Origin: Heterodontus francisci
Lineage: Eukaryota
NCBI RefSeq assembly: GCF_036365525.1
Contig: NC_090386.1
Location: 83,596,999-83,660,998 of the forward strand
Reading direction: 5' to 3'
Length of the DNA: 64,000 nucleotides
The translations under genes were made by a program, and so were the position numbers. Positions within the stretch are counted from its first letter, which is position 1. Each line of letters starts with the position of its first letter. Below are positions 2,070 to 49,803 of this stretch, in pieces. The notes under the pieces were generated by a model. That model was not told the origin of the DNA, ran no database searches, and was given only the letters and a program-made list of their open reading frames with translations.

Positions 2070-5000
2070 TTCTTTTGGGCCTCCTTATCTCGAGAGACAA
2101 TGGATACGCGCCTGGAGGTGGTCAGTGGTTTGTGAAGCAGCGCCTGGAGTGGCTATAAAGGCCAATTCTGGAGTAACAGGCTCTTCCACAGGTGCTGCAG
2201 AGAAATTTGTTTGTTGGGGCTGTTGCACAGTTGGCTCTCCCCTTGCGCCTCTGTCTTTTTTCCTGCCAACTACTAAGTCTCTTCGACTCGCCACAATTTA
2301 GCCCTGTCTTTATGGCTGCCCGCCAGCTCTGGCGAATGCTGGCAACTGACTCCCACGACTTGTGATCAATGTCACACGATTTCATGTCGCGTTTGCAGAC
2401 GTCTTTATAACGGAGACATGGACGGCCGGTGGGTCTGATACCAGTGGCGAGCTCGCTGTACAATGTGTCTTTGGGGATCCTGCCATCTTCCATGCGGCTC
2501 ACATGGCCAAGCCATCTCAAGCGCCGCTGACTCAGTAGTGTGTATAAGCTGGGGATGTTGGCCGCTTCAAGGACTTCTGTGTTGGAGATATAGTCCTGCC
2601 ACCTGATGCCAAGTATTCTCCGAAGGCAGCGAAGATGGAATGAATTGAGACGTCGCTCTTGGCTGGCATACGTTGTCCAGGCCTCGCTGCCGTAGAGCAA
2701 GGTGCTGAGGACACAGGCCTGATACACTCGGACTTTTGTGTTCCGTGTCAGTGCGCCATTTTCCCACACTCTCTTGGCCAGTCTGAACATAGCAGTGGAA
2801 GCCTTTCCCATGCGCTTGTTGATTTCTGCATCTAGAGACAGGTTACTGGTGATAGTTGAGCCTAGGTAGGTGAACTCTTGAACCACTTCCAGAGCGTGGT
2901 CGCCAATATTGATGGATGGAGCATTTCTGACATCCTGCCCCATGATGTTCGTTTTCTTGAGGCTGATGGTTAGGCCAAATTCATTGCAGGCAGACGCAAA
3001 CCTGTCGATGAGACTCTGCAGGCATTCTTCAGTGTGAGATGTTAAAGCAGCATTGTCAGCAAAGAGGAGTTCTCTGATGAGGACTTTCCGTACTTTGGAC
3101 TTCGCTCTTAGACGGGCAAGGTTGAACAACCTGCCCCCTGATCTTGTGTGGAGGAAAATTCCTTCTTCAGAGGATTTGAACGCATGTGAAAGCAGCAGGG
3201 AGAAGAAAATCCCAAAAAGTGTGGGTGCGAGAACACAGCCCTGTTTCACACCACTCAGGATAGGAAAGGGCTCTGATGAGGAGCCACCATGTTGAATTGT
3301 GCCTTTCATATTGTCATGGAATGAGGTGATGATACTTAGTAGCTTTGGTGGACATCCGATCTTTTCTAGTAGTCTGAAGAGACCACGTCTGCTGACGAGG
3401 TCAAAGGCTTTGGTGAGATCAATGAAAGCAATGTAGAGGGGCATCTGTTGTTCACGGCATTTCTCCTGTATCTGACGAAGGGAGAACAGCATGTCAATAG
3501 TCGATCTCTCTGCACGAAAGCCACACTGTGCCTCAGGGTAGACGCGCTCGGCCAGCTTCTGGAGCCTGTTCAGAGCGACTCGAGCAAAGACTTTCCCCAC
3601 TATGCTGAGCAGGGAGATTCCACGGTAGTTGTTACAGTCACCGCGGTCACCTTTGTTTTTATAGAGGGTGATGATGTTGGCATCGCGCATGTCCTGGGGT
3701 ACTGCTCCCTCGTCCCAGCACAGGCATAGCAGTTCATGTAGTGCTGAGAGTATAGCAGGCTTGGCACTCTTGATTATTTCAGGGGTAATGCTGTCCTTCC
3801 CAGGGGCTTTTCCGCTGGCTAGGGAATCAATGGCATCACTGAGTTCCGATTTGGTTGGCTGTATGTCCAGCTCATCCATGACTGGTAGAGGCTGGGCTGC
3901 ATTGAGGGCAGTCTCAGTGACAGCATTCTCCCTGGAGTACAGTTCTAGGTAGTGCTCAACCCAGCGGTCCATCTGTTTGCGTTGGTCAGTGATTATGTCC
4001 CCCGATTTAGATTTGAGGGGGGTGATCTTCTTGATGGTTGGCCCAAGAGCTCTCTTCATGCCATCATACATTCCTCTGATGTTTCCGGTGTCTGAGGCCA
4101 GCTGAATATGACTGCATAGGTGTTGCCAGTAGTCGTTTGCGCAACGCCTAGCTGTTCTTTGTGCAGTACTTCTGGCTGCTTTAAGTGCTGCGGATGTTAA
4201 ATCGCTGGGGGCTTTCTTGTAGTTCAAAAGTGCAATGCGCTTAGCGGCTATGACAGGTTCCAGCTCTTCATTATGAGATTGAAACCAGTCTGCATTTCTC
4301 TTCGCACTTTTGCCGTAGGTGGTCAAAGCTGACTCATAGATGGCGTCTCTGATGTGGGCCCACTTGGTCTCAGCATCCCCTGTGGGAGTGTTTTGAAGGG
4401 CTGTTACAAGTGAATTTAGAAATTTTTGTAACAGCTGTGGGTGAGAAATTCTGCTCGTGTTGATGCGCGGGTGGCCCTTCTGCTTGGAATGATGCAACTT
4501 CTTTGGTCTGAGTCTAACCTTGCTGCATACCAGGGAGTGGTCGGTGTCGCAGTCCGCACTGTGGAAGCTGCGTGTGATTTGAACACTGTTTAAGGCGGCT
4601 CGCCTTGTGACAATGAGGTCTAGCTGGTGCCAACGACGTGATCTTGGGTGCCTCCATGAAACCTGGTGACAGGGTTTAGTGTGAAAGAACGAGTTGGTGA
4701 TGCAGAGGTTATGATAGGTGCACAACTCAAGCAGTCTCTGCCCGTTCTCATTCATCCTTCCAACGCCATAGCGCCCAAGGCAGGAGGGCCATGAGTCATG
4801 GTCGGCCCCAACCCTGGCATTAAAGTCCCCCAGCAGGAATAGGTGTTCGGTGTTGGGGATGCTGCTAATGATGTTATGGAGTTGTTCATAGAACTGGTCT
4901 TTAGCTTCAGGTGCGGAACAGAGTGTTGGAGCATAGATGCTGAGTAGGTGTACTGGACCAGAGGTGGTGAGCAGTCGGATGGACAGTATGCGTTCCGAGC

Positions 5001-5652
5001 CATTTGAGGGAGGCTCTATCATGCTGAGCAAGGAGTTTCTGATGGCGAAGCCCACTCCATGCTGTCTTGGTTCTTCAGGATCCCTGCCCTGCCAGAAGAA
5101 GGTGTAGTCTTGCTCTGCTAGAGAGCCACTCGCGGGGAGGCGAGTCTCCTGAAGTGCTGCAATGTCCACATTGAGTCTACTGAGCTCGTTGTTAATGATG
5201 GCGGTCTTCCGAGAATCGTTGATTTGTGTAAGGTCTTCCGACAGGCCAGGACACATAGTTCTGACGTTCCAGCTTGCAAAGCGAAGGGCTGGTACCTTCT
5301 TTCCTTTTTTCATGTTGTTTGGTGCGGTGTATCAGTCCACCTTTCGGGCAATGACCCTGAGCTCCAAGCACCCATTGAAGCAGGCAGACTGTGGCGGGAC
5401 AGAACCTTATTGACCGGGGGCTGCCCGGTTTGAGGCGGGCGGTAGCTGTCCAGTGAGGTGCAATGACCTCTCCCACCGACAAAGGCAACCCGTGGCGCCC
5501 AGTTTTACGCCAATTTATCTGGACTTATAACCCGTAACTGCTGCCTTCCGTGTTGTTTCAGTCGCTGTGAGGCAACTATGGAGTGACCTCTCCATGGCGC
5601 ATGCCTGGGCAAATTTATGGAGGTTGAGAGTTGCCCAGTCGTCAAAACCCCC
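2070..5652 (-). mobile_element. RTE-clade LINE copy 1, truncated in the 5' UTR
   Basis: Single APE-RT ORF, short 3' UTR ending GAGGCCCAAAAGAA, high identity to the copies at 12671 and 46736. Confidence 0.97.
2122..5313 (-). CDS. RTE ORF, 1063 aa: AP endonuclease, reverse transcriptase and C-terminal C2H2-like finger; RT motif is FADN
   Basis: SWNVRT, ALQETR, LGDFNA and TDH endonuclease motifs; KAPGKD, YRGISLL, QCGFR, FIDLTKAFD, GVKQG, FADN and YLGS RT motifs; C-terminal CSTCGRAC..GLYSH. Confidence 0.95.
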   Translation of the reverse strand: MKKGKKVPALRFASWNVRTMCPGLSEDLTQINDSRKTAIINNELSRLNVDIAALQETRLPASGSLAEQDYTFFWQGRDPEEPRQHGVGFAIRNSLLSMIEPPSNGSERILSIRLLTTSGPVHLLSIYAPTLCSAPEAKDQFYEQLHNIISSIPNTEHLFLLGDFNARVGADHDSWPSCLGRYGVGRMNENGQRLLELCTYHNLCITNSFFHTKPCHQVSWRHPRSRRWHQLDLIVTRRAALNSVQITRSFHSADCDTDHSLVCSKVRLRPKKLHHSKQKGHPRINTSRISHPQLLQKFLNSLVTALQNTPTGDAETKWAHIRDAIYESALTTYGKSAKRNADWFQSHNEELEPVIAAKRIALLNYKKAPSDLTSAALKAARSTAQRTARRCANDYWQHLCSHIQLASDTGNIRGMYDGMKRALGPTIKKITPLKSKSGDIITDQRKQMDRWVEHYLELYSRENAVTETALNAAQPLPVMDELDIQPTKSELSDAIDSLASGKAPGKDSITPEIIKSAKPAILSALHELLCLCWDEGAVPQDMRDANIITLYKNKGDRGDCNNYRGISLLSIVGKVFARVALNRLQKLAERVYPEAQCGFRAERSTIDMLFSLRQIQEKCREQQMPLYIAFIDLTKAFDLVSRRGLFRLLEKIGCPPKLLSIITSFHDNMKGTIQHGGSSSEPFPILSGVKQGCVLAPTLFGIFFSLLLSHAFKSSEEGIFLHTRSGGRLFNLARLRAKSKVRKVLIRELLFADNAALTSHTEECLQSLIDRFASACNEFGLTISLKKTNIMGQDVRNAPSINIGDHALEVVQEFTYLGSTITSNLSLDAEINKRMGKASTAMFRLAKRVWENGALTRNTKVRVYQACVLSTLLYGSEAWTTYASQERRLNSFHLRCLRRILGIRWQDYISNTEVLEAANIPSLYTLLSQRRLRWLGHVSRMEDGRIPKDTLYSELATGIRPTGRPCLRYKDVCKRDMKSCDIDHKSWESVASIRQSWRAAIKTGLNCGESKRLSSWQEKRQRRKGRANCATAPTNKFLCSTCGRACYSRIGLYSHSRRCFTNH

Positions 5653-12495: not shown

Positions 12496-12670
12496 ATAAT
12501 ACGATTATGACCGCGTTGGGAGGAGTGCACTGTCTTTTCTAGTTCCACTTCTCCACAGGTCACAACATATATTTAAATGTTTACCCAATGACCGATATGG
12601 TCAATCATATACTCGACTCTTGATCCCAGAATAAAATACACCAACCAGGTTTGTTTAATAAACAACAAAA

Positions 12671-15600
12671 TTCTTCTTCTTCTTTGGCCTCCTTGTCTCA
12701 AGAGACAATGGGTAAGCGCCTGCAGGTGGTCAGTGGTTTGTGGAGCAGCGCCTGGAGTGGCTATAAAGGCCAATGCTAGAGTGACAGACTCTTCCACAGG
12801 TGCTGCAGATAAAATTGGTTGTCAGGGCTGTTTCGCAGTTGGCGCTCCCCTTGCGCTTCTGTCTTTTTTCCTGCCAACTGCTAAGTCTCTTCGACTCGCC
12901 ACACTTTAGCTCCACCTTTATGGCTACCCACCAGCTCTGGCGATCGCTGGCAACTGACTCCCACGACTTGTGATCAATGTCACAGGACTTCATGTCGCGT
13001 TTTCAGACGTCTTTAAAGCGGAGACATGGACGGCCGGTGGGTCTGATACCAGTGACGAGCTCGCTGTACAGTGTGTCCTTGGGGATCCTGCCATCTTCCA
13101 TGCGGCTCACATGGCCAAGCCATCTCAAGCGCCGCTGACTCAGTCGGGTGTATATGCTGGGGATGTTGGCCGCCTCGAGAACTTCTGTGTTGGAGATACG
13201 GCCCTGCCATCTGATGCCAAGGATTCTCCGGAGGCAGCGAAGATGGAATGAATTGAGACGTCGCTCTTGGCTGACATACGTTGTCCAGGCCTCGCTGCCG
13301 TAGAGCAAGGTACTGAGGACACAGGCTTGATACACTCGGACTTTTGTGTTCCATGTCAGTGCACCATTTTCCCACAGTCTCTTGGCCAGTCTGGACATAG
13401 CAGAGGAAGCCTTTCCCATGCGCTTGTTGATTTCTGCATCTAGAGACAGGTGATAGTTGAGCCTAGGTAGGTGAACTCTTGAACCACTTCCAGAACGTGG
13501 TCGCCGATATTGATGGATGGAGCATTTCTGATGTCCTGTCCCATGATGTTCGTTTTCTTGAGGCTGATGGTTAGGTCAAATTTGTTGCAGGCAGCCGTAT
13601 ACCTGTTGATGAGATTCTGCAGACACTCTTCAGTGTGAGATGTTAAAGCAGCATCATCAGCAAAGAGAAGTTCCCTGATGAGGACTTTCCGTACTTTGGT
13701 CTTCGCTCTTAGACGGGCAAGGTTAAACAACCTGCCACCTGATCTTGCGTGGAGGAAAATTCCTTCTTCTGAAGACTTGAATGCATGTGAAAGCAGCAGG
13801 GAGAAGAAAATCCCAAACAGTGTAAGTGCGAGAACACAGCCCTGTTTCACACCACTCAGGATAGGAAAGGGGTCTGATGAGGTGCCACTCTGCTGAATTG
13901 TGCCTTTCATATTGTCATGGAATGAGGTGATGATACTTAATAGCTTTGGTAGACATCCGATCTTTTCTCGCAGTCTGAAGAGACCTCGTCTGCTGACGAG
14001 GTCAAAGGCTTTGGTGAGATCAATGAAAGCAACGTAGAGGGGCATCTGTTGTTCTAGGCATTTCTCCTGCAGCTGGCGAAGGGTGAACAGCATGTCAATG
14101 GTCGATCTCTCTGCTCGAAAGCCACACTGTGCCTCAGGGTAGACACGCTTGACCAGCTTCTGGAGCCTGTTCAAAGCAACTCGAGCAAAGACTTTTCTCA
14201 CAATGCTGAGCAGGGAGATTCCACAGTAGTTGTTGCAGTCACTGCGGTCACCCTTGTTCTTATAGAGGGTGATGATATTGGCATCGCGCATGGCCTGTGG
14301 TACTGCTCCCTCATCCCAGCACAGGTAAAGCAGTTCGTAGAGTGCTGAGAGTACAGCAGGCTTAGCACTCTTAATTATTTCAGGGGTAATGCCGTCCTTT
14401 CCAGGGCTTTTCCGCTGGCTAGAGAATCAATGGCATCACTGAGTTCCGATTTTGTTGGCTGTACGTCCAGCTCATCCATGACTGGCAGAGGCTGGGCTGC
14501 ATTGAGGGCGGTATCAGTGACAACATTCTCCCTGGAGTACAGTTCTAGGTAGTGCTCAACCCAGCGGTTCATTTGGATACGTTGGTCAGTGATTGTGTCC
14601 CCTGATTTAGATTTGAGGGGGGCGATCTTCTTGATGGTTGGCCCAAAGCTCATTGGCCATCATACATTCCCTCTGATGTTTCCGGTGCCTGAGGCCAGCT
14701 GAATATGACTGCATAGGTGTTGCCAGTAGTCATTTACGCAGCGCCTGGCTGTTCTTTGTGCAGCGCTTCTGGCTGTTTTAATTGCTACGGATGTTTACTC
14801 GCTGGGGGCTTTCTTGTAGTTCAGCCATGCAATGCGCTTAGCGGCTATGACAGGTTCCAGCTCTTCAAAGTGAGATTGAAACCAGTCTGCATTCTGCTTC
14901 ACGCGTTTGCCATAGGTGGTCATAGCTGACTCATAGATGGCTTCTCTGATGTGGGCCCACTTGGTCTCTGAATCTCCTGTGGGAGTGTTTTGAAGGGCTT
15001 CTTCAAGTGAATTTAGAAATTTTTGTAACAGCTGTGGATAAGAAATTCTGCCCGTGTTGATGCGCGGGTGGCCCTTCTGCTTGGAGTGATGCAGCTTCTT
15101 TGGTTTGAGTCTAACCTTGCTGCACACTAGGGAGTGGTTGGTGTCGCAGTCCGCACTGTGGAAGCTACGTGTCATTTGAACGCTGTTTAAAGAGGCTCGC
15201 CTTGTGACGATGAGGTCTAGCTGGTGCCAACGACGTGATCTTGGGTGCCTCCAAGAAACCTGGTGACGGGGTTTACTGTGAAAGAACGAGTTGGTGATGC
15301 AGAGGTTATGATAGGTACACAACTCAAGCAGTCTCTGTCCATTCTCATTCATCCTTCCAATGCCATAGCGCCCAAGGCAGGAGGGCCATGAGTCATGGTC
15401 GGCCCCAACCCTGGCATTAAAGTTCCCCAGCAGGAACAGATGTTCAGTATTGGGGATGCTACTAATGATATTATGGAGTTCCTCGTAGAACTGGTCTTTA
15501 GCTTCAGGTGGGGAGCTGAGTGTTGGAGCATAGATGCTGAGTAGGTGTGCTGGACCGGAGGCGGTGAGCAGTCAGATGGACAGTATGCGTTCTGAGCCAT

Positions 15601-16455
15601 TTATAGGTGGCTCTATCATACTGAGCAAAGTGTTTCTGATGGCGAAGCCCACTTCATGCTGTCTTGGTTCTTCAGGATCCCTACCCTGCCAGTAGAAGGT
15701 GTAGTCTTGCTCTCTTAGAGATCTGCTCATAGGGAGGTGTGTCTCCTGAAGTGCTGCAATGTCCACATTGAGTCTACTGAGCTCGTTGTTAATGATGGCA
15801 GCCTTCCGAGAATCGTTGATTTGTGTAAGGTCTTCCAACAAGGCAGGACACATAGTTCTGACGTTCCAGCTAGCAAAATGAAGGGCTGGTACCTTCTTTC
15901 CTTTTTTTACCGTGCTGTTTGGTGCGGTGTTGCAGTCCGCTTTTCAGGCAACGACCCTGAGCTCCAAGCACCCATTGAAGCAGGTGGACTGTGGCGGGAC
16001 AGAACCTTATTGACCGGGGGCTGCCTGGTTTGAGGCGGGCGGTAGCTGTCCAGTGAGGTGCGATGACCTCTCCCACCGACAAAGGCAACCCGTGGCGCCC
16101 AATCTCTACGCCAATTGAGCTGGACTTATAACCCGTAACTGCTGCCTTCCGTGTTGTTTCGGTCGTTGTGAGGCGACTATGGAGTGACCTCTCCATGGCG
16201 CATGCCTGGGCGAATGTATGGGGGTTGTGAGTTGCCCAAGCATCAAAACCCCCCCCTCGGCCTTTCTAGTGGGGTCCAAAGGAGTGCAGAGCATGACGTT
16301 TGGCACCGGTATGGCTGCAGGAACTGCCGGAAACATGCCAAAGATGACACATGACTGCCTACGGGGTTCCGCTCCGGATTTTCTGTTAGGGTTTACTCCC
16401 TTAGCCTTGGAGTCTCCCGAAACGCCCACAAGGTAGTGGGGTTGTTAGGGCCCCT
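12671..16455 (-). mobile_element. RTE-clade LINE copy 2, apparently full length and frameshifted
   Basis: (GAA)n tail, fragmented APE-RT ORF (pieces 15572-15853, 14795-15352, 14375-14653, 13440-14291, 13003-13419, 12730-12993) with FADD, and a longer 5' UTR than copy 1. The 5' boundary is approximate. Confidence 0.95.
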
Positions 16456-16484
16456 GCTCAGGCACAGGTGGATGCCGGTGGCAG

Positions 16485-16623
16485 GAGGGGGTGCGAAAGG
16501 GAGGGGTGGAGGGAAGGGGGTGCTAGGGGGAGCTGGGAAGGGGGCTGCAGGGGGTAGGGGGTGGGGGAAGAGGTTGCGAGGGGAGAGCTGGGAGGGGGGA
16601 GCGGGGTGGGGGGGGAAGTGGGT
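16485..16623 (+). repeat. G-tract low-complexity segment with G-quadruplex potential
   Basis: More than a dozen runs of 3 or more G separated by short loops. Confidence 0.8.
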
Positions 16624-16880
16624 GCAGGTAATAAAACATTTCATCAGTTCCCACCATCCCAGAAGACCTCGCTGTTCCTGGTGTGTTGGTTGCTGCTGTT
16701 TTTAACAGGATTCCTCATAAGGATTACTAATGGAGATGACAAAGGGGAATGGTTCATAACCCAGCACAAAACCACTGCTGCACATCAATTGTCATCAGTC
16801 TGGGAGAATGTTATCAGTGGAGTCCCACAGGGGTCTGCATTGCAACCTGTTTCATATCTTCATAAAAACTTTGCAGCTAG

Positions 16881-17081
16881 GAGTCACAGCTCATCCGTGT
16901 CCTCCGGGAGGTGGGCGACAGCCTCGGGTGCCAGAATCAGCAGAGGTTCGCCGCCATTGCGCTGCAGATGCGCTATGAGCCGCACATCTCCCGCGGGCGC
17001 TTTGAAGTTGTGGCCGAGGAGCCGTTCCGTGATGGAGTCAACAGGGGCCGGGTCGTGGCTTTTTACATGTTATGGGGCACC
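16881..17081 (+). pseudogene. Bcl-2-family (Bcl-2/Bcl-xL/Bcl-w-like) BH3-BH1 fragment
   Basis: ESQLIRVLREVGDSLGCQNQQRFAAIALQMRYEPHISRGRFEVVAEEPFRDGVNRGRVVAFYMLWGT aligns without gaps to the recalled Bcl-2 segment [33 protein letters not shown]. Confidence 0.9.
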
Positions 17082-18749
17082 TTTTTCTCAACGCTTCCCC
17101 TCTGTACTAGGTCTTATTACCCTAGGGTTCCGCTGCTCCTTCCTCTCTGCCTCTCTGCACTGGACTTACCGCACGCCGTGGCCACGGACAAAAAATTACC
17201 AGTTTATTATAAAACAAGACATAACCAGTAACGAAGCAAAGCATTAACACACAGAGTGAAATATGAAAGTTCCCTTTTATCTTAGTCCCTCACACACACA
17301 CACAGGTACGCACACACACACACACACACACACTGGTTAACCGAAAAAAAAATAGATTTTCTTTTTAGAGCTCTGTTGCAAAAAAAAGACTAAAAAAAAT
17401 ACTTTGGCCAAATACTTGCTAATTCTTGAAGGAAAAAGAGAAGATATGGAAAGATGCCAGTTGTCCCTTTTTTGGTTTGGCATCCCAAATACGCGTACGC
17501 GTAGATGGCTGTCACTGGGATCTTTCTAGAACAGTTCTTTTCAGGCGATGTTGAAGATCAGTTTGGCAGGTTTTCTAGGCAAAATGAGGCAACAGGGGTT
17601 TCTGGTAGGCCTTTCAGGAGATAGAAAAGGCTGAACTGAGGTGACTGTTCTCTTGGCTTTTTTTAAAGAACTCTTTTTAAAATACTCCACACCCCAACTC
17701 ACTGTCCAAAGTGAAACCAAAAACAACATCTTAAGAGTCAAGCCTCCTGACCCCTATAAATCTTGACTTGTCACTTCTCTGTTAACATCTTCCCCAGGTC
17801 AAAAAAAACCCCTGATGGGTATTTATCTGAAGACAGGTGACTTGCAGCAAATGTTCTTTTCAAACAAGACCTCTCAGTGTCCGTTCAATGACCCCAGTCA
17901 AAAAAACCTCCATGGAATCCTTTTCAGTTTTCCCAAATAAAAAATGTCCATAATTCTAAAATACATAAGTCTTCAAAAAATACTGAACAAAAAACATAGA
18001 AGTACCATCATAACAATACGTTTTATAATTCTGTCACTATAATGATGTAATTGCATAAACCACCACTCATAATATACTCCCAAATATAGTTTTATAAAGA
18101 AAGAAAAGTAATTCTAATAGCTTTATCATAAGGCTCTTAAGTAGCTAACTCAACATTCATGCTCACCTTGTCCATGTAAATATTTACATTCCAGTCCTGT
18201 TTTGCATAGTACGAACATATCTCTTGCAGAGCAGATTATATAGAGACCTTGAATTTAATTATATGCTAGTCAATTCTTTACTTTCCCAAGTGATACATAC
18301 AAACATTAACCAAAGGAAATATCCATTTGAAAACTAAATCTCTTTTTGCTTTGGGCACTTCAGATGCTTTTGGATCAGGACTGTGATGTTGCTTCTAACC
18401 AGAATTCATTGTGAGGGGAACCCCTTTAATCAAGATCTATAGGATTTCAGGCCTACATTGCCTTGATCCTATTGACAGATTGTACATAGATTTAAATATC
18501 AAACACTCAATCACATTCTCTGTTGCTCAGCAGAGAAGCTCTGATATAGATTTTATGAGCTGACAACAAATACAACAGATTTGCCATTGGCAGGGTCTTT
18601 TGCATTGATGAGCATGCTCAGTGCAATCACAACTACTTTAGCTCCCCAGGATTCACTGAGGAGGGAAAAAATGTTTCTCATTTCATGCTTTTGTCAAGTT
18701 AAGGCTAACAATCATGGCTCGACTACATCAGCAATTTAGAACACATCCA

Positions 18750-25689: not shown

Positions 25690-28600
25690 TACACCAGATG
25701 AATGCGTGGCTGGAGAGATGGTGCAGGAGGGAGGGTTTCAGATTTCTGGGACATTGGGACCAGTTCTGGGGAAGGTGGGACCTGTACAAGCCGGATGGTC
25801 TATGCCTGAACAGGACTGGGACACTCATTCTTGCAGAAAGGTTTGCTAGTGCTGTTGGGGATGGTTTAAAGTAGTTTGGCAGGGGGATGGGAACCTGAGG
25901 GCAGTTTCAGATAGGACAATTTCAGGCCAGGAAACAGAAGGCAGAAAACTAGTGAGTGACTTGCTAATTTGGGCGGCACAGTGGCTCAGTGGTTAGCACC
26001 ACAGCTCCAGCGACCCGGGTTCGGTTCTTGGTACTGCCTGTGTGGAGTTTGCAAGTTCTTCCTGTGACCATGTGGGTTTCTGCTGGGTGCTCCGGTTTCC
26101 TCCCACAGTCAAAGACTTGCAGGTTGATAGGTAAATTGACCATTATAAATTGCCCCTAGTGTCGGTAGGTGGTGGGAGAATGGTGGGGATGTGGTAGGGA
26201 ATATGGGATTAATGTAGGATTAGTATAAATGGGTGGGGTTGTTGGTCGGCACAGACTCGGTGGGCCGAAGGGCCTGTTTCAGTGCTGTATCACTCTATGA
26301 CTTGGAAAGACAATAGGAGCAAAGGCTAAAAAGTGTGCAGCACAGGAATTTGGCAGTGCTAAAAGGTGTTCATTTAAATGCAAGGAGTATAGTAAATAAA
26401 GCCAATGAGCCAATAGATAGACACAAGGCAACACGATATTGTTGCTATAACGGAAATGTGGCTTAAAGTGGGGCAAAAATGACAGATGAACATCCCTGGA
26501 TATAGAGTTTTCAGGCATGATAGAGAGGCAGATAAAAAAGGAGGGGGTGTAGCATTATTGGTTAAGGAATCAATAACAACTATGAGGAGGGATGATATGC
26601 TAAATGAATCATCAAATGAGGCCATTTGGGTGGAGATCAGAAATAAAAAAGGGGCAGCTACACTACTAGGAGTGTACTACAGACCTCCAAATAGTGAGAG
26701 GGATCTGGTGAAGGTGGACTGGACACAGCTACTCGAAGGAAAATTAGTGGCAAGCCAGTGGGAGGCATTCAAAAGCGAGATTCTACAGGCACAGTGTAGG
26801 CATGTCCTCACAAAGATAAAGGGTGGTACTGCCAAATCTAGAGCCCCATGGTTATCTGGAGCCTTACAGGCTATGTTGAAGCAGAAAAAGAAAGCTTATG
26901 GCGATCACAAAACTTAATACTTTAGCAAGCCTGGAGGAGTATAAAAAGTTCAGGGGTGACGTAAAAAAGGAATTAGAAAAGCAAAAAGAGGACATGAAAA
27001 AATATTGGCAGGTAAGATCAAGGAAAACATGAAGATGTTTTATCAGTACATTAAGAGCAAGAGGATAACTAAGGAAAGGGTAGGGCCTATCAGAAATGTA
27101 CAAGGGTACTTACATGTGCTTGCAGATGATGTGGGCAGTGTTCTTAGTGAGTGTTTTGCCTCTGTCTTCATAAAGGAGAGGAATGATGCAGACATTGTAG
27201 TAAAAGAAGAGGAGTGTGAAATATTAGATACGATTAATATAATGAGAGAGGAAGTACTAGAAGGTCTGACATCCTTGAAAGTGGATACATCACCATGGCC
27301 AGATGGATTGTATCTCAGGCTGTTAAAGGAAGCCAGGGAAGAAATAGTGGATGCGCTGAGGTTCATCTTCAGATCTTCACTGGATATAGGCGAGATTATA
27401 CCATTGTTTAAAAAGGGTGCAAGGGATAGGCCAAATAATTATAGGCCGGTCATTCTGACCTTGGTGGTGAGTAAATTTTTAGAATCAATTCTGAGGGACG
27501 GGATAAACTGCCACTTTTAGAGGCACGGACTGATCAGGGATAGTCAGCATGGATTTGTTAAGGAAAGGTCATGTTTACTAACTTAATTGAATTCTTTGAG
27601 GAAGTAACAAAGAGGATTGATGAGGGTAGTGCAATGGATGTGGTCTACATGGATTTTAGTAAGGCATTTGACAAGGTCCCACAGGGCAGACTGGTCAGTA
27701 AAATGAAAGCCCAGGGGATACAGGGGAATGTGGCAGGTTGGATCCAAAATTGGCTCAGTGACAGGAAACAAAGGGTAGTAGTTGATGGATGTTTTTGTGA
27801 ATGGAAGCTGTTTTCAGTGGCCTTCCACAGGGCTCAATGTTGGGTCCCTTGCTGTTTGTGGTATATATTAATGATTTGGACTTAAATGTGGGAGGCATGA
27901 TTGGGAAATTTGCTGATGACACAATAATTAGTCTTGTAGTTGATAGTGAAGAGGATAGGTGTAGATTCCAGAATTATATCAATGGTTTGGTTGAGTGGGC
28001 AGAAAAGTGGCAAATGGACTTCAATCCAGAGAAGTGTGAGGTAATACATTTGGGGAGGGCTAATAAAGTGAAGGAATACACAATAAATGGGAGGATATTG
28101 AGAGGGGTAGAAGAAGTGAAAGACCTTGGAGTACATGCCCACAGGTCCCTAAAGGTGGCAGGACAGGTAGATAATGTGGTGAAGAAGGCACATGGAATGC
28201 TTTCCGTAATTAGTCGAGGTATAGCATACAAAAGCAGGGATATGATGCTGGAACTTTATAAAACGCTGGTTCGGCCACAGTTGGAGTCGGCGTACAGTTC
28301 TGGTCACCACATTACAGGGTGGACATAGTTGCTCTGGAGAGAGTGCAGAGGAGATTTACAAGAATGTTGCCAGGGCTTGAAAGTTGCAGCTATGAGGAAA
28401 GATTGGATAGGCTGGGCTGAGGGGTGACTTAATTGAGGTGTACAAAATTATGAGGGGCCTAGATAGAGTAGACAGGAAGGACTTGTTTCCCCTAGCAGTG
28501 AGGTCAATTACCAGGGGGCACAGATTTAAGGTGATTGATAGAAGGATTAGAGGGGACATGAAGAAAATCGTTTTCACCCAGAGGGTGGTGGGTGTCTGGA

Positions 28601-46732: not shown

Positions 46733-46735
46733 AAC

Positions 46736-49672
46736 TCTTTGGCCTCCTTATCTCGAGAGACAATGGGTAAGCGCCTCGAGGTGGTCAGTGGTGTGTGGAG
46801 CAGCGCCTGGAGTGGCGATAAAGGACAATTCTAGAGTGACAGGCTCTTCCACAGGTGCTGCAGAAAAATTTGTTTGTCGGGGCTGTTACACAGTTGGCTC
46901 TCCCCTTGCGCTTCTGTCTTTTTTCCTGCCAACTGCTAAGTCTCTTCGACTCGCCACACTTTAGCCTCGCCTTTATGGCTGCCCGCCAGCTCTGGCGAAT
47001 GCTGGCAACTGACTCCCACGACTTGTGATCAATGTCACAGGACTTCATGTCGCGTTTGCAGACGTCTTTAAAGCGGAGACATGGACGGCCGGTGGGTCTG
47101 ATACCAGTGGCGAGCTCGCTGTACAATGTGTCTTTGGGGATCCTGCCATCTTCCATGCGACTCACATGGCCAAGCCATCTCAAGCGCCGCTGACTCAGTA
47201 GTGTGTAAAAGCTGGGGATGTTGGCCGCCTCGAGGACTTCTGTGTTGGAGATACGGTCCTGCCACCTGATGCCAAGTATTCTCCGGAGGCAGCGAAGATG
47301 GAATGAAGTGAGACGTTGCTCTTGGCTGGCATACGTTGTCCAGGCCTCGCTGCCATAGAGCAAGGTACTGAGGACGCAGGCCTGATACACTCGGACTTTT
47401 GTGTTCCGTGTCAGTGCGCCATTTTCCCACACTCTCTTGGCCAGTCTGGACATAGCAGTGGATGCCTTTCCCATGCGCTTGTTGATTTCTGCATCTAGAG
47501 ACAGGATTATGGTGATAGTTGAGCCTGGGTAGGTGAACTCTTGAACCACTTCCAGAGCGTGGTCGCCAATATTGATGGATGGAGCATTTCTGACGTCCTG
47601 CCCCATGATGTTCGTTTTCTTGAGGCTGATGGTTAGGCCAAATTCGTTGCAGGCAGCCGCAAACCTGTCAATGAGACTCTGCAGACACTCTTCAGTGTGA
47701 GATGTTAAAGCAGCATCGTCAGCAAAGAGGAGTTCTCTGATGAGGACTTTCCGTACTTTGGACTTCGCTCTTAGATGGGCAAGGTTGAACAACCTGCCCC
47801 CTGATCTTGTGTGGAGGAAAATTCCTTCTTTTGAAGACTTGAATGCATGTGACAGCAGCAGGGAGAAGAAAATCCCAAACAGTGTAGGTGCGAGAACACA
47901 GCCCTGTTTCACGCCACTCAGGATAGGAAAGGGGTCTGATGAGGTGCCGCTATGTTGTATTGTGCCTTTCATATTGTCATGGAATGAGGTGATGATACTT
48001 AGTAGCTTTGGTGGACATCCAATCTTTTCTAGTAGTCTGAAGAGACCACGTCTGCTGACGAGGTCAAAGGCTTTGGTGAGATCAATGAAAGCAATGTAGA
48101 GGGGCATCTGTTGTTCGCTGCATTTCTCTTGTATCTGACGAAGGGAGAACAGCATGTCAATGGTCGATCTTACTGCACGAAAGCCACACTGTGCCTCAGG
48201 GTAGACGCGGTCGGCCAGCTTCTGGAGCCTGTTTAAAGCGACTCGAGCAAAGACTTTCCCCACTATGCTGAGCAGGGAGATTCCACGGTAGTTGTTGCAG
48301 TCACCGCGGTCACTTTTGTTTTTATAGAGGGTGATGATATTGGCATCGCGCATGTCCTGAGGTACTGCTCCCTCGTCCCAGCACAGGCAAAGCAGTTCAT
48401 GTAGTGCTGAGAGTATAGCAGGCTTGGCACTCTTGATTATTTCAGGGGTAATGCTGTCCTTCCCAGGGGATTTTCCACTGGCTAGAGAATCAATGGTATC
48501 ACTGAGTTCCGATTTTGTTGGCTGTACGTCCAGCTCATCCATGACTGGTAGAGGCTGGGCTGCATTGAGGGCGGTCTTAGTGACAACATTCTCCCTGGAG
48601 TACAGTTCTAGGTAGTGCTCAACCCAACGGTTCATTTGCTTGCGTTGGTCAGTGATTATGTCCCCTGATTTAGATTTGAGGGGGGCGATCTTCTTGATGG
48701 TTGGCCCAAAAGCTCTCTTAATGCCATCATACGTTCCTCTGATGTTTCTGGTGACTGAGGCCAGCTGAATATGACTGCATAGGTGTTGCCAGTAGTCATT
48801 TGCGCAGCGCCTGGCTGTTCTTTGTGCAGCGCTTCTGGCTGTTTTAAGTGCTACGGATGTTAACTCGCTGGGGGCTTTCTTGTAGTTCAACAGTGCAATG
48901 CGTTTAGCGGCTATGACAGGTTCCAGCTCTTCAATGTGATATTGAAACCAGTCTGCATTCCTCTTCGCAAGTTTGCCGTAGGTGGTCAAAGCTGACTCAT
49001 AGATGGCGTCTCTGATGTGGGCCCACTTGGTCTCAGCATCCCCTGTGGGAGTGTTTTGAAGGGCTGTTACAAGTGAATTTAGAAATTTTTGTAACAGCTG
49101 TGGGTGAGAAATTCTGCTCGTGTTGATGCGCGGGTGGCCCTTCTGCTTGGAATGATGCAACTTCTTTGGTCTGGGTCTAACCTTGCTGCACACCAGGGAG
49201 TGGTCGGCGTTGCAGTTCGCACTGTGGAAGCTGCGTGTGATTTGAACACTGTTTAAGGAGGCTCACCTTGTGACGATGAGGTCTAGCTGGTGCCAATGAC
49301 GCGATCTTGGGTGCCTCCATGAAACCTGGTGACAGGGTTTAGTGTGAAAGAACGTGTTGGTGATGCAGAGGTTATGATAGGTACACAACTCAAGCAGTCT
49401 CTGCCCATTCTCATTCATCCTTCCAATGCCATAGCGCCCAAGGCAGGAGGGCCATGAGTCATGGTCGGCCCCAACCCTGGCATTAAAGTCCGCCAGCAGG
49501 AACAGGTGTTCGGTGTTGGGGATGCTACTAATGATATTATGGAGTTCCTCGTAGAACTGGTCTTTAGCTTCAGGTGGGGAGCAGAATGTTGGAGCATAGG
49601 TGCTGAGTAGGTGTACTGGACCAGAGGTGGTGAGCAGTCGGATGGACAGTATGCGTTCCGAGCCATTTGAGG
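46736..49672 (-). mobile_element. RTE-clade LINE copy 3, 5' truncated within the endonuclease domain
   Basis: 802-aa open segment 46785-49193 with an FADD RT motif; same 3' UTR as copies 1 and 2. Confidence 0.97.
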
Positions 49673-49803
49673 GATATGTGGAAATTTGGCAGAGCCGGTA
49701 ATCAATTTCTTAAGGGCATAAATGTAGCACCTCATGAAAATAAAGACAACCAAGGAAGCAGTTATGAAAAGGTTTTGAAAATTAGATAAAGCACCAGCTA
49801 CAG
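49673..49803 (+). repeat. Right copy of the 131-bp direct repeat
   Basis: Matches 46602-46732 and abuts the RTE 5' truncation point. Confidence 0.95.

Follow-up and report, generated by a model that had tools for sequence, protein, structure and literature searches.

An inverted bcl2 exon fragment in the mosaic leaders of an RTE-like LINE family of the shark Heterodontus francisci

The fragment and its carrier element

The window, a 64,000-nucleotide stretch of Heterodontus francisci DNA (NC_090386.1, positions 83,596,999 to 83,660,998), contains a fragment of a bcl2 exon embedded in the leader of an RTE-like LINE, the leader being a patchwork of segments that we call tiles (Table 1). A reading made from the sequence alone had described 67 open codons at 16881-17081 with BH3-like and BH1-like motifs; translation bears this out, with LREVGDSL and EEPFRDGVNRGRVVAF both present in the one open frame. 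The homology to Bcl-2 that it proposed also stands: the match to Pfam family PF00452 has an E value of 9.5e-7 (29.7 bits, narrowly missing the gathering score of 31.4), a PDB search returned human Bcl-2 structures with an E value of 5e-12 and the translation is 69-73% identical to elasmobranch Bcl-2 proteins. The DNA from 16888 to 17081 is 87% identical to the host bcl2 exon, and it is this part of the originally proposed span that is Bcl-2; the first codons of the frame derive from another insert, and a 1-nt insertion near 16894 disrupts the parent frame upstream. The proline (CCG) and arginine (AGG) codons each lie, as had been suggested, one base away from the parent gene (CTG>CCG, TGG>AGG in the alignment), so that BH1 reads NRGR in the window copy in place of the intact NWGR. 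BH2, BH4 and the membrane tail are missing, again in agreement with the first reading, and the main family spans only parent codons ~51-122.

Table 1. Features of the element and its leader (positions in the window)
Feature	Positions	Strand	Remarks
RTE-like non-LTR retrotransposon copy	12670..17189	-	5'-truncated by ~370 nt; ORF broken
3' (GAA)n microsatellite tail	12671..12682	-	read from the sequence
Endonuclease and reverse transcriptase ORF	12730..15928	-	three frames, two frameshifts, at least one stop
Core 5' leader, common to all variants	15929..16657	-	starts with a variable C-rich tract, ~16455-16630
~230-nt insert marking the window's subfamily	16658..16887		140 first-look candidates
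bcl2 exon fragment, BH3 to BH1	16888..17081	+	antisense to the LINE; parent codons ~58-122; 169/194 nt identical
Short spacer tile	17082..17168	-	abuts the bcl2 piece exactly past a cryptic antisense AG acceptor
irak1bp1 exon 1, 3' end	17169..17189	-	21 nt; parent G000:C3:147639196, locus L220; sense to the LINE

The fragment does lie antisense to an endonuclease-reverse transcriptase element, as first described. The broken ORF of this element is 87-89% identical to the stop-free 1069-aa ORF of another copy at 2122-5331, in which Pfam recognizes the Exo_endo_phos, RVT_1 and DUF6451 domains. This minus-strand sister copy (92% identical) is 5'-truncated within the core leader and is without the bcl2 tile; a third copy of the LINE, with a short inverted piece, lies at 46735-49803. 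The leader holds no long sense ORF, the architecture being that of a single ORF with no ORF1, and the idea of an element ORF running in sense through the tile was rejected on finding stops in all three frames in three of three copies. Among 23 long copies checked none has a full open ORF, the longest extending over 790 codons. Degenerate LINE ORF pieces are also present on the plus strand at 26960-28328; from their motifs we take these to be CR1-like, and a weak Pfam match to Haspin there looks spurious.

The RTE label is a putative one, taken from the architecture. The features of the RTE type that the family displays are a single ORF with AP endonuclease and reverse transcriptase, a microsatellite tail and target-site duplications (TSDs) in the 7-15 bp range; matches of the LINE in the Atlas are chordate LINE clusters without clade names. 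Of 15 complete elements, 11 have TSDs of 9-12 bp, compared with 11 of 210 mismatched flank pairs, and none of at least 9 bp was found around the window copy. A range of 7-15 bp is given for the TSDs of the RTE clade (PMC6007223). Complete elements share a start, marked by a CAAGATGGC motif, which lies about 480 nt upstream of the tile and ~370 nt beyond 17189, so the bcl2 piece is not the 5' end of the element that it had been thought to be. The motif at the start presumably resembles a YY1 site. Since the TSDs bracket complete elements, the tile was mobilized together with the rest of its element. The 5' region of the element (L089:4466-6300) was also encountered in runs X1-X5 of two organism codes, which hints at two host species.

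Copies, source gene and leader composition

A protein search of the genome gave 914 first-look candidates, and all 150 of those scored passed. Exact matches to a 19-nt pattern taken from the tile number 387 genome-wide (the parent included), with 0 for the reversed control, and the pattern is carried by 89 of the 133 sampled copies that span the site; about 575 or more tile copies are thereby implied, a figure that is a floor because the sample favours good copies. Removal of the parent, the paralog at L035 and duplicate fetches reduced 183 hits to 138 distinct copies, and LINE sequence adjoins the tile in 136 of them. The first-pass orientation relative to the LINE was antisense in 118, sense in eight and not assignable in 12; L169, first scored as sense, proved antisense on inspection, giving ~119 antisense among 126 orientable copies and seven sense. 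The flanking parts of the bcl2 exon are rare (four and eight places versus 387 for the core pattern). The candidates and exact matches together rule out a one-off dead chimera, and the matches and the linkage uphold both the view that an RTE-like LINE captured Bcl-2 sequence and the conditional suggestion, made from the sequence alone, of an RTE subfamily dispersing antisense Bcl-2. Several hundred antisense copies of an exon of a core apoptosis gene, 87-98% identical to it, are thus spread in the genome, and matches to the tile should not be counted as an expansion of the Bcl-2 family.

A search for the parent locus, also proposed at the outset, found it at G000:C2:70329595-70330084, the first coding exon of the single intact bcl2 gene in the genome. 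The last exon occurs once, at C2:70498636, 168 kb downstream, and the first and last exons translate 98% and 100% like P0005 (NCBI name: Heterodontus francisci Bcl-2); naming within the Bcl-2 family follows database labels. Older copies of the tile are 92-98% identical to the host exon. On these alignments the source of the fragment is the genome's own bcl2 exon, rather than the divergent Bcl-2 paralog first suggested, and the divergence from bcl2 arose within the element. L035 (G000:C16:21529585-21530073), an exon of a second Bcl-2-family gene that is probably a bcl-xL-type paralog, was dismissed as a divergent source, being 47% identical to P0005 and no more than 72% alike at the DNA level. 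At present, no leader-bearing LINE copy or leader tile lies within the 168-kb bcl2 intron, so a cis donor element is hypothetical; the only LINE piece there is a 3' fragment on the opposite strand.

Tiles upstream of the core leader vary between variants. Host-gene tiles comprise irak1bp1 exon 1, ubiad1 (two copies), the SH2 region of a chimaerin (two copies) and a doublecortin domain (one copy), and several arrangements of the bcl2 piece were seen, which differ in their breakpoints and include both orientations. The original picture of a lone Bcl-2 capture was therefore right as to the capture and missed a mosaic of host exons and splice-site junctions. Credible Pfam matches were obtained for two of 27 tile translations (DCX, and SH2 weakly), and a weak match of one translation to DUF2845 was discounted; a PDB search with the doublecortin tile gave 0 matches and an Atlas search with the irak1bp1 tile gave nothing informative. 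For the 5'-most 370 nt, the 230-nt insert and the spacer tile, no parent was recognized among the best 40 matches and no Pfam or PDB match was found; part of the insert resembles, we assume, a CR1 reverse transcriptase motif. The backbones of the older (B-type) and the window's subfamilies differ by 0.7-1.7%, and a backbone tree of 126 copies is star-like and gives no order of the leader variants; on both counts the leaders changed fast relative to the backbone.

Some leaders carry sense in-frame fusions of host coding pieces (L173:1344-1800, L171:1400-1711 and L166:1327-1700, each in one or two sampled copies), of the types ubiad1-linker-bcl2 and doublecortin-bcl2-spacer. A bcl2-independent spacer tile (L165:1562-1800, L175-L199) has 611 first-look candidates and at least four different upstream tiles, and a second sense-bcl2 subfamily (L193, L195, L198, L199) meets it through a 65-nt tile.

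Junctions, decay and proposed history

The bcl2 piece is probably unselected antisense cargo, an exon that would have been spliced in, 5'-inverted and then reused as an acceptor for further host exons. The sense copies L165 and L166 stop at the bcl2 splice donor (L177 retains the final 6 nt), and their bcl2 sequence joins the position after a CAG seen in bcl2-free copies; the bcl2-free CAG junction has 17 exact matches, and the polypyrimidine tract there is weak and purine-rich. Both copies of CTGG are retained at the bcl2-to-leader join, which is thus not a microhomology junction. The ubiad1 tile ends exactly at its own donor, and the chimaerin tile ends at its donor if two substitutions are allowed and, in L063, extends beyond the acceptor on its upstream side, into what looks like the preceding exon. 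Tiles of three genes, counting bcl2 in its sense copies, therefore end at the parent donor, whereas the main antisense tile ends internally. In older copies the irak1bp1 tile stops where the exon stops; the junction is ambiguous because the window copy can also be aligned to the start of the intron, with a gap of 1 nt.

One of these internal ends sits at a putative splice acceptor. In 84 of 130 non-sense copies the tile ends at parent position 1866, right after one AG, and this AG has the richest pyrimidine tract (17/22) of the 31 antisense AGs in the exon; L082 keeps the antisense exon through to the donor, the putative acceptor included. The last ~15 nt are common to the two main upstream tiles, so any use of the acceptor counts as one event. 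For the joins of the ubiad1 and chimaerin tiles, no precursor was found. An origin purely by template switching or repair, with the reverse transcriptase jumping between the RNA of the LINE and RNA or DNA of the cell, bcl2 being taken from an antisense template and the splice-site matches arising by chance or microhomology, would suit the exon-internal microhomology junctions (at the inner edge of the bcl2 tile, between doublecortin and bcl2, and where a 5' tile replaces upstream irak1bp1), the recurrence of bcl2 pieces with several breakpoints and the failure to find an intronic donor element. We nevertheless judge it unlikely, given that the tiles of three genes end at donors, that the major breakpoint falls at the top-ranked antisense acceptor and that the bcl2-to-leader join keeps both copies of CTGG.

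In the spliced-cargo reading that we prefer, the bcl2 donor would first have been spliced to the CAG acceptor in an older leader tile, in cis from an intronic copy since lost or in trans, giving the sense-oriented copies, which are scarce (seven sampled). An inversion of the twin-priming type would then have flipped and trimmed the exon, exposing the pyrimidine tract and AG to which new upstream exons could be spliced. Further exon captures and 5' transduction may have replaced the upstream part and added a new start, and the window's subfamily would have gained the 230-nt insert. The new 5' ends are predicted to drive transcription, with the bcl2 piece hitch-hiking on successful masters. This order rests on the logic of the junctions because the backbone tree is star-like.

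In 36 of 130 copies, from a sample enriched for 5' ends, LINE body in the opposite orientation directly adjoins the 5' side; such inversions (L085, L089, L095, L068) often reach the true 5' end and lie within one TSD, in a twin-priming geometry. A perfect predicted splice donor is present on the minus strand at 17164-17170, just past the irak1bp1 tile, in the window and younger copies and not in older ones. This donor could splice the bcl2 tile out, and no splice joint removing the tile was seen among the contigs listed.

The pattern of substitution accords with cargo. Column majorities compared with the parent show 0 nonsynonymous and two synonymous differences in the older subfamily and ten and three, respectively, in that of the window (pN/pS 1.0), the master thus drifting from two to 13 differences; purifying selection acted on the LINE ORF during that interval, with pN 0.008 and pS 0.030 between the subfamilies. 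L103P characterizes the window's subfamily, 32 of 35 copies having it, and W110R is near-private, NRGR occurring in five of 119 copies and intact NWGR in 74. Private changes fit a neutral model built from the LINE body (p 0.17, 0.36); naive site counting gives a private N/S of 0.56 in the older subfamily, a deficit that is gone under a mutation-aware null. Every one of the 19 deletions is frame-shifting. One of 36 copies of the window's subfamily, and eight of 27 of the older group, have a Met in frame ahead of BH3.

It has to be asked whether the bcl2 frame, which recurs among copies as a 164-aa open frame and keeps NWGR in most of them, is translated from an antisense promoter into a BH1/BH3 peptide. 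The master-lineage pN/pS, the fixation of L103P, the neutral decay with its frame-shifting deletions, the scarcity of a Met before BH3 and the lack of a chimeric protein among 14 database matches make such an ORF highly improbable. A peptide role of the tile is very unlikely, and the earlier idea of BH3-peptide effects is not supported, given the missing purifying selection and the single Met among 36 copies.

The CpGs had been described as largely kept, and the fragment does have 17 compared with 23 in the parent. Their decay per site (0.084 and 0.125) is about that of the body of the element (0.101 and 0.140), which rules out protection as a CpG island; the CpG content reflects youth. Between subfamilies the tile changed at 11 of 188 positions and the leader core at nine of 524 (p 0.0075), and the tile is perhaps faster than synonymous ORF sites (p 0.077), a faster change that pure neutrality does not predict.

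An antisense regulator, in which transcripts of the flipped exon give rise to piRNA, siRNA or dsRNA that lowers germline bcl2 and so affects the fitness of element or host, would be in keeping with the strong antisense bias and with an older master that matched the parent at all but two sites. Contigs with the tile joined to element flanks were found in four of four runs from two studies, their RNA status being guessed and strand and level not readable, and three of these four runs also carry what reads as spliced irak1bp1. There is a precedent in TART, directed against nxf2, aub and piwi (PMC13534243). We regard such a regulator as quite unlikely: the master drifted off bcl2, from two to 13 differences, and the host gene shows no escape evolution, differing from the older master by two synonymous changes in codons 62-121 and encoding a protein that is nearly invariant in this region across sharks. 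Moreover, bcl2 is not a silencing gene, making a benefit to the element hard to see. A fuller form, similarly improbable, would have hundreds of LINE loci, their 5' ends renewed by serial exon trapping, transcribing antisense bcl2, with germline small RNAs cutting bcl2 mRNA and tuning germ-cell apoptosis; were it true, the faster drift of the tile in younger masters would be an escape from cost. The copies make a test of TE-to-host small RNA action straightforward.

Relation to known capture systems

A search of openly accessible papers listed no description of this element. The closest parallels among SVA elements are SVA_F1 (MAST2 exon 1) and chimpanzee pt_SVA_D6 (STK40 exon 1), in each of which a subfamily was founded when the donor of a GC-rich host exon became joined to the 5' part of the element. 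Members go on to acquire exons of other genes, and a captured exon can act as a promoter; the subfamilies number 84-94 copies, carry the exon in sense and belong to non-autonomous SVAs (PMC6139936). The shark family resembles them in having a captured host exon, joined at its donor, in the 5' part, with further exons added. An acceptor AG is likewise present at the join (the CAG of bcl2-free copies, and the pyrimidine tract and AG at the main breakpoint), and no source element was found downstream of the exon, in the 168-kb bcl2 intron. The shark family differs in that its carrier is a protein-coding LINE family, its exon is inverted and trimmed and present in ~575 or more copies, and the inverted exon was apparently reused as an acceptor.

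The 5' transduction chimeras of human L1 with mRNAs (MAP3K13, FHIT, PALLD, CREM, RAP1GDS1) comprise 17 insertions, mostly single events and 15 of them in sense, for which promoter co-option has been proposed (bioRxiv 10.1101/2025.02.02.635956). They share with the shark copies donor-ending host exons fused 5' of a near full-length autonomous LINE and a long downstream intron, and the intronic source element is often missing there too (bioRxiv 10.1101/2025.02.02.635956). Unlike the shark LINE, none of these L1-mRNA chimeras gave rise to a large subfamily or to a serial mosaic.

The telomeric retrotransposons of Drosophila, as described in PMC13534243, hold captured fragments of nxf2, aub or piwi and offer the same combination of a non-LTR element, a host coding fragment in many copies and recurrent capture, the capture families having higher copy numbers. 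The genes targeted there act in the piRNA pathway, and both piRNA evidence and an acceleration of host evolution are on record (PMC13534243), whereas shark bcl2 shows no host escape: neither the comparison of the parent with the older master nor that of shark proteins revealed acceleration in the captured region.

Twin priming, or 5' inversion, is stated in PMC2912911 to be nearly exclusive to L1 in the human genome. The shark copies L085, L089, L095 and L068 share its arrangement, an inverted 5' segment abutting a 3' segment within one TSD, in contrast to the L1-bound process in that they belong to an RTE-like element, in which inversions affect 36 of the 130 copies, the sampling having favoured 5' ends. 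That 5' inversion is so frequent outside L1 gives the family a further interest.

How a LINE swaps its 5' ends is a long-standing question, and here one genome records it, in a protein-coding shark LINE family that appears to capture host exons repeatedly. Capture of host exons at the 5' end was already known from single L1 chimeras and from two SVA subfamilies of fewer than 100 copies; what appears to be new is that a LINE family of RTE-like, autonomous type captures exons serially, apparently using an inverted exon as the acceptor, and in several hundred copies.
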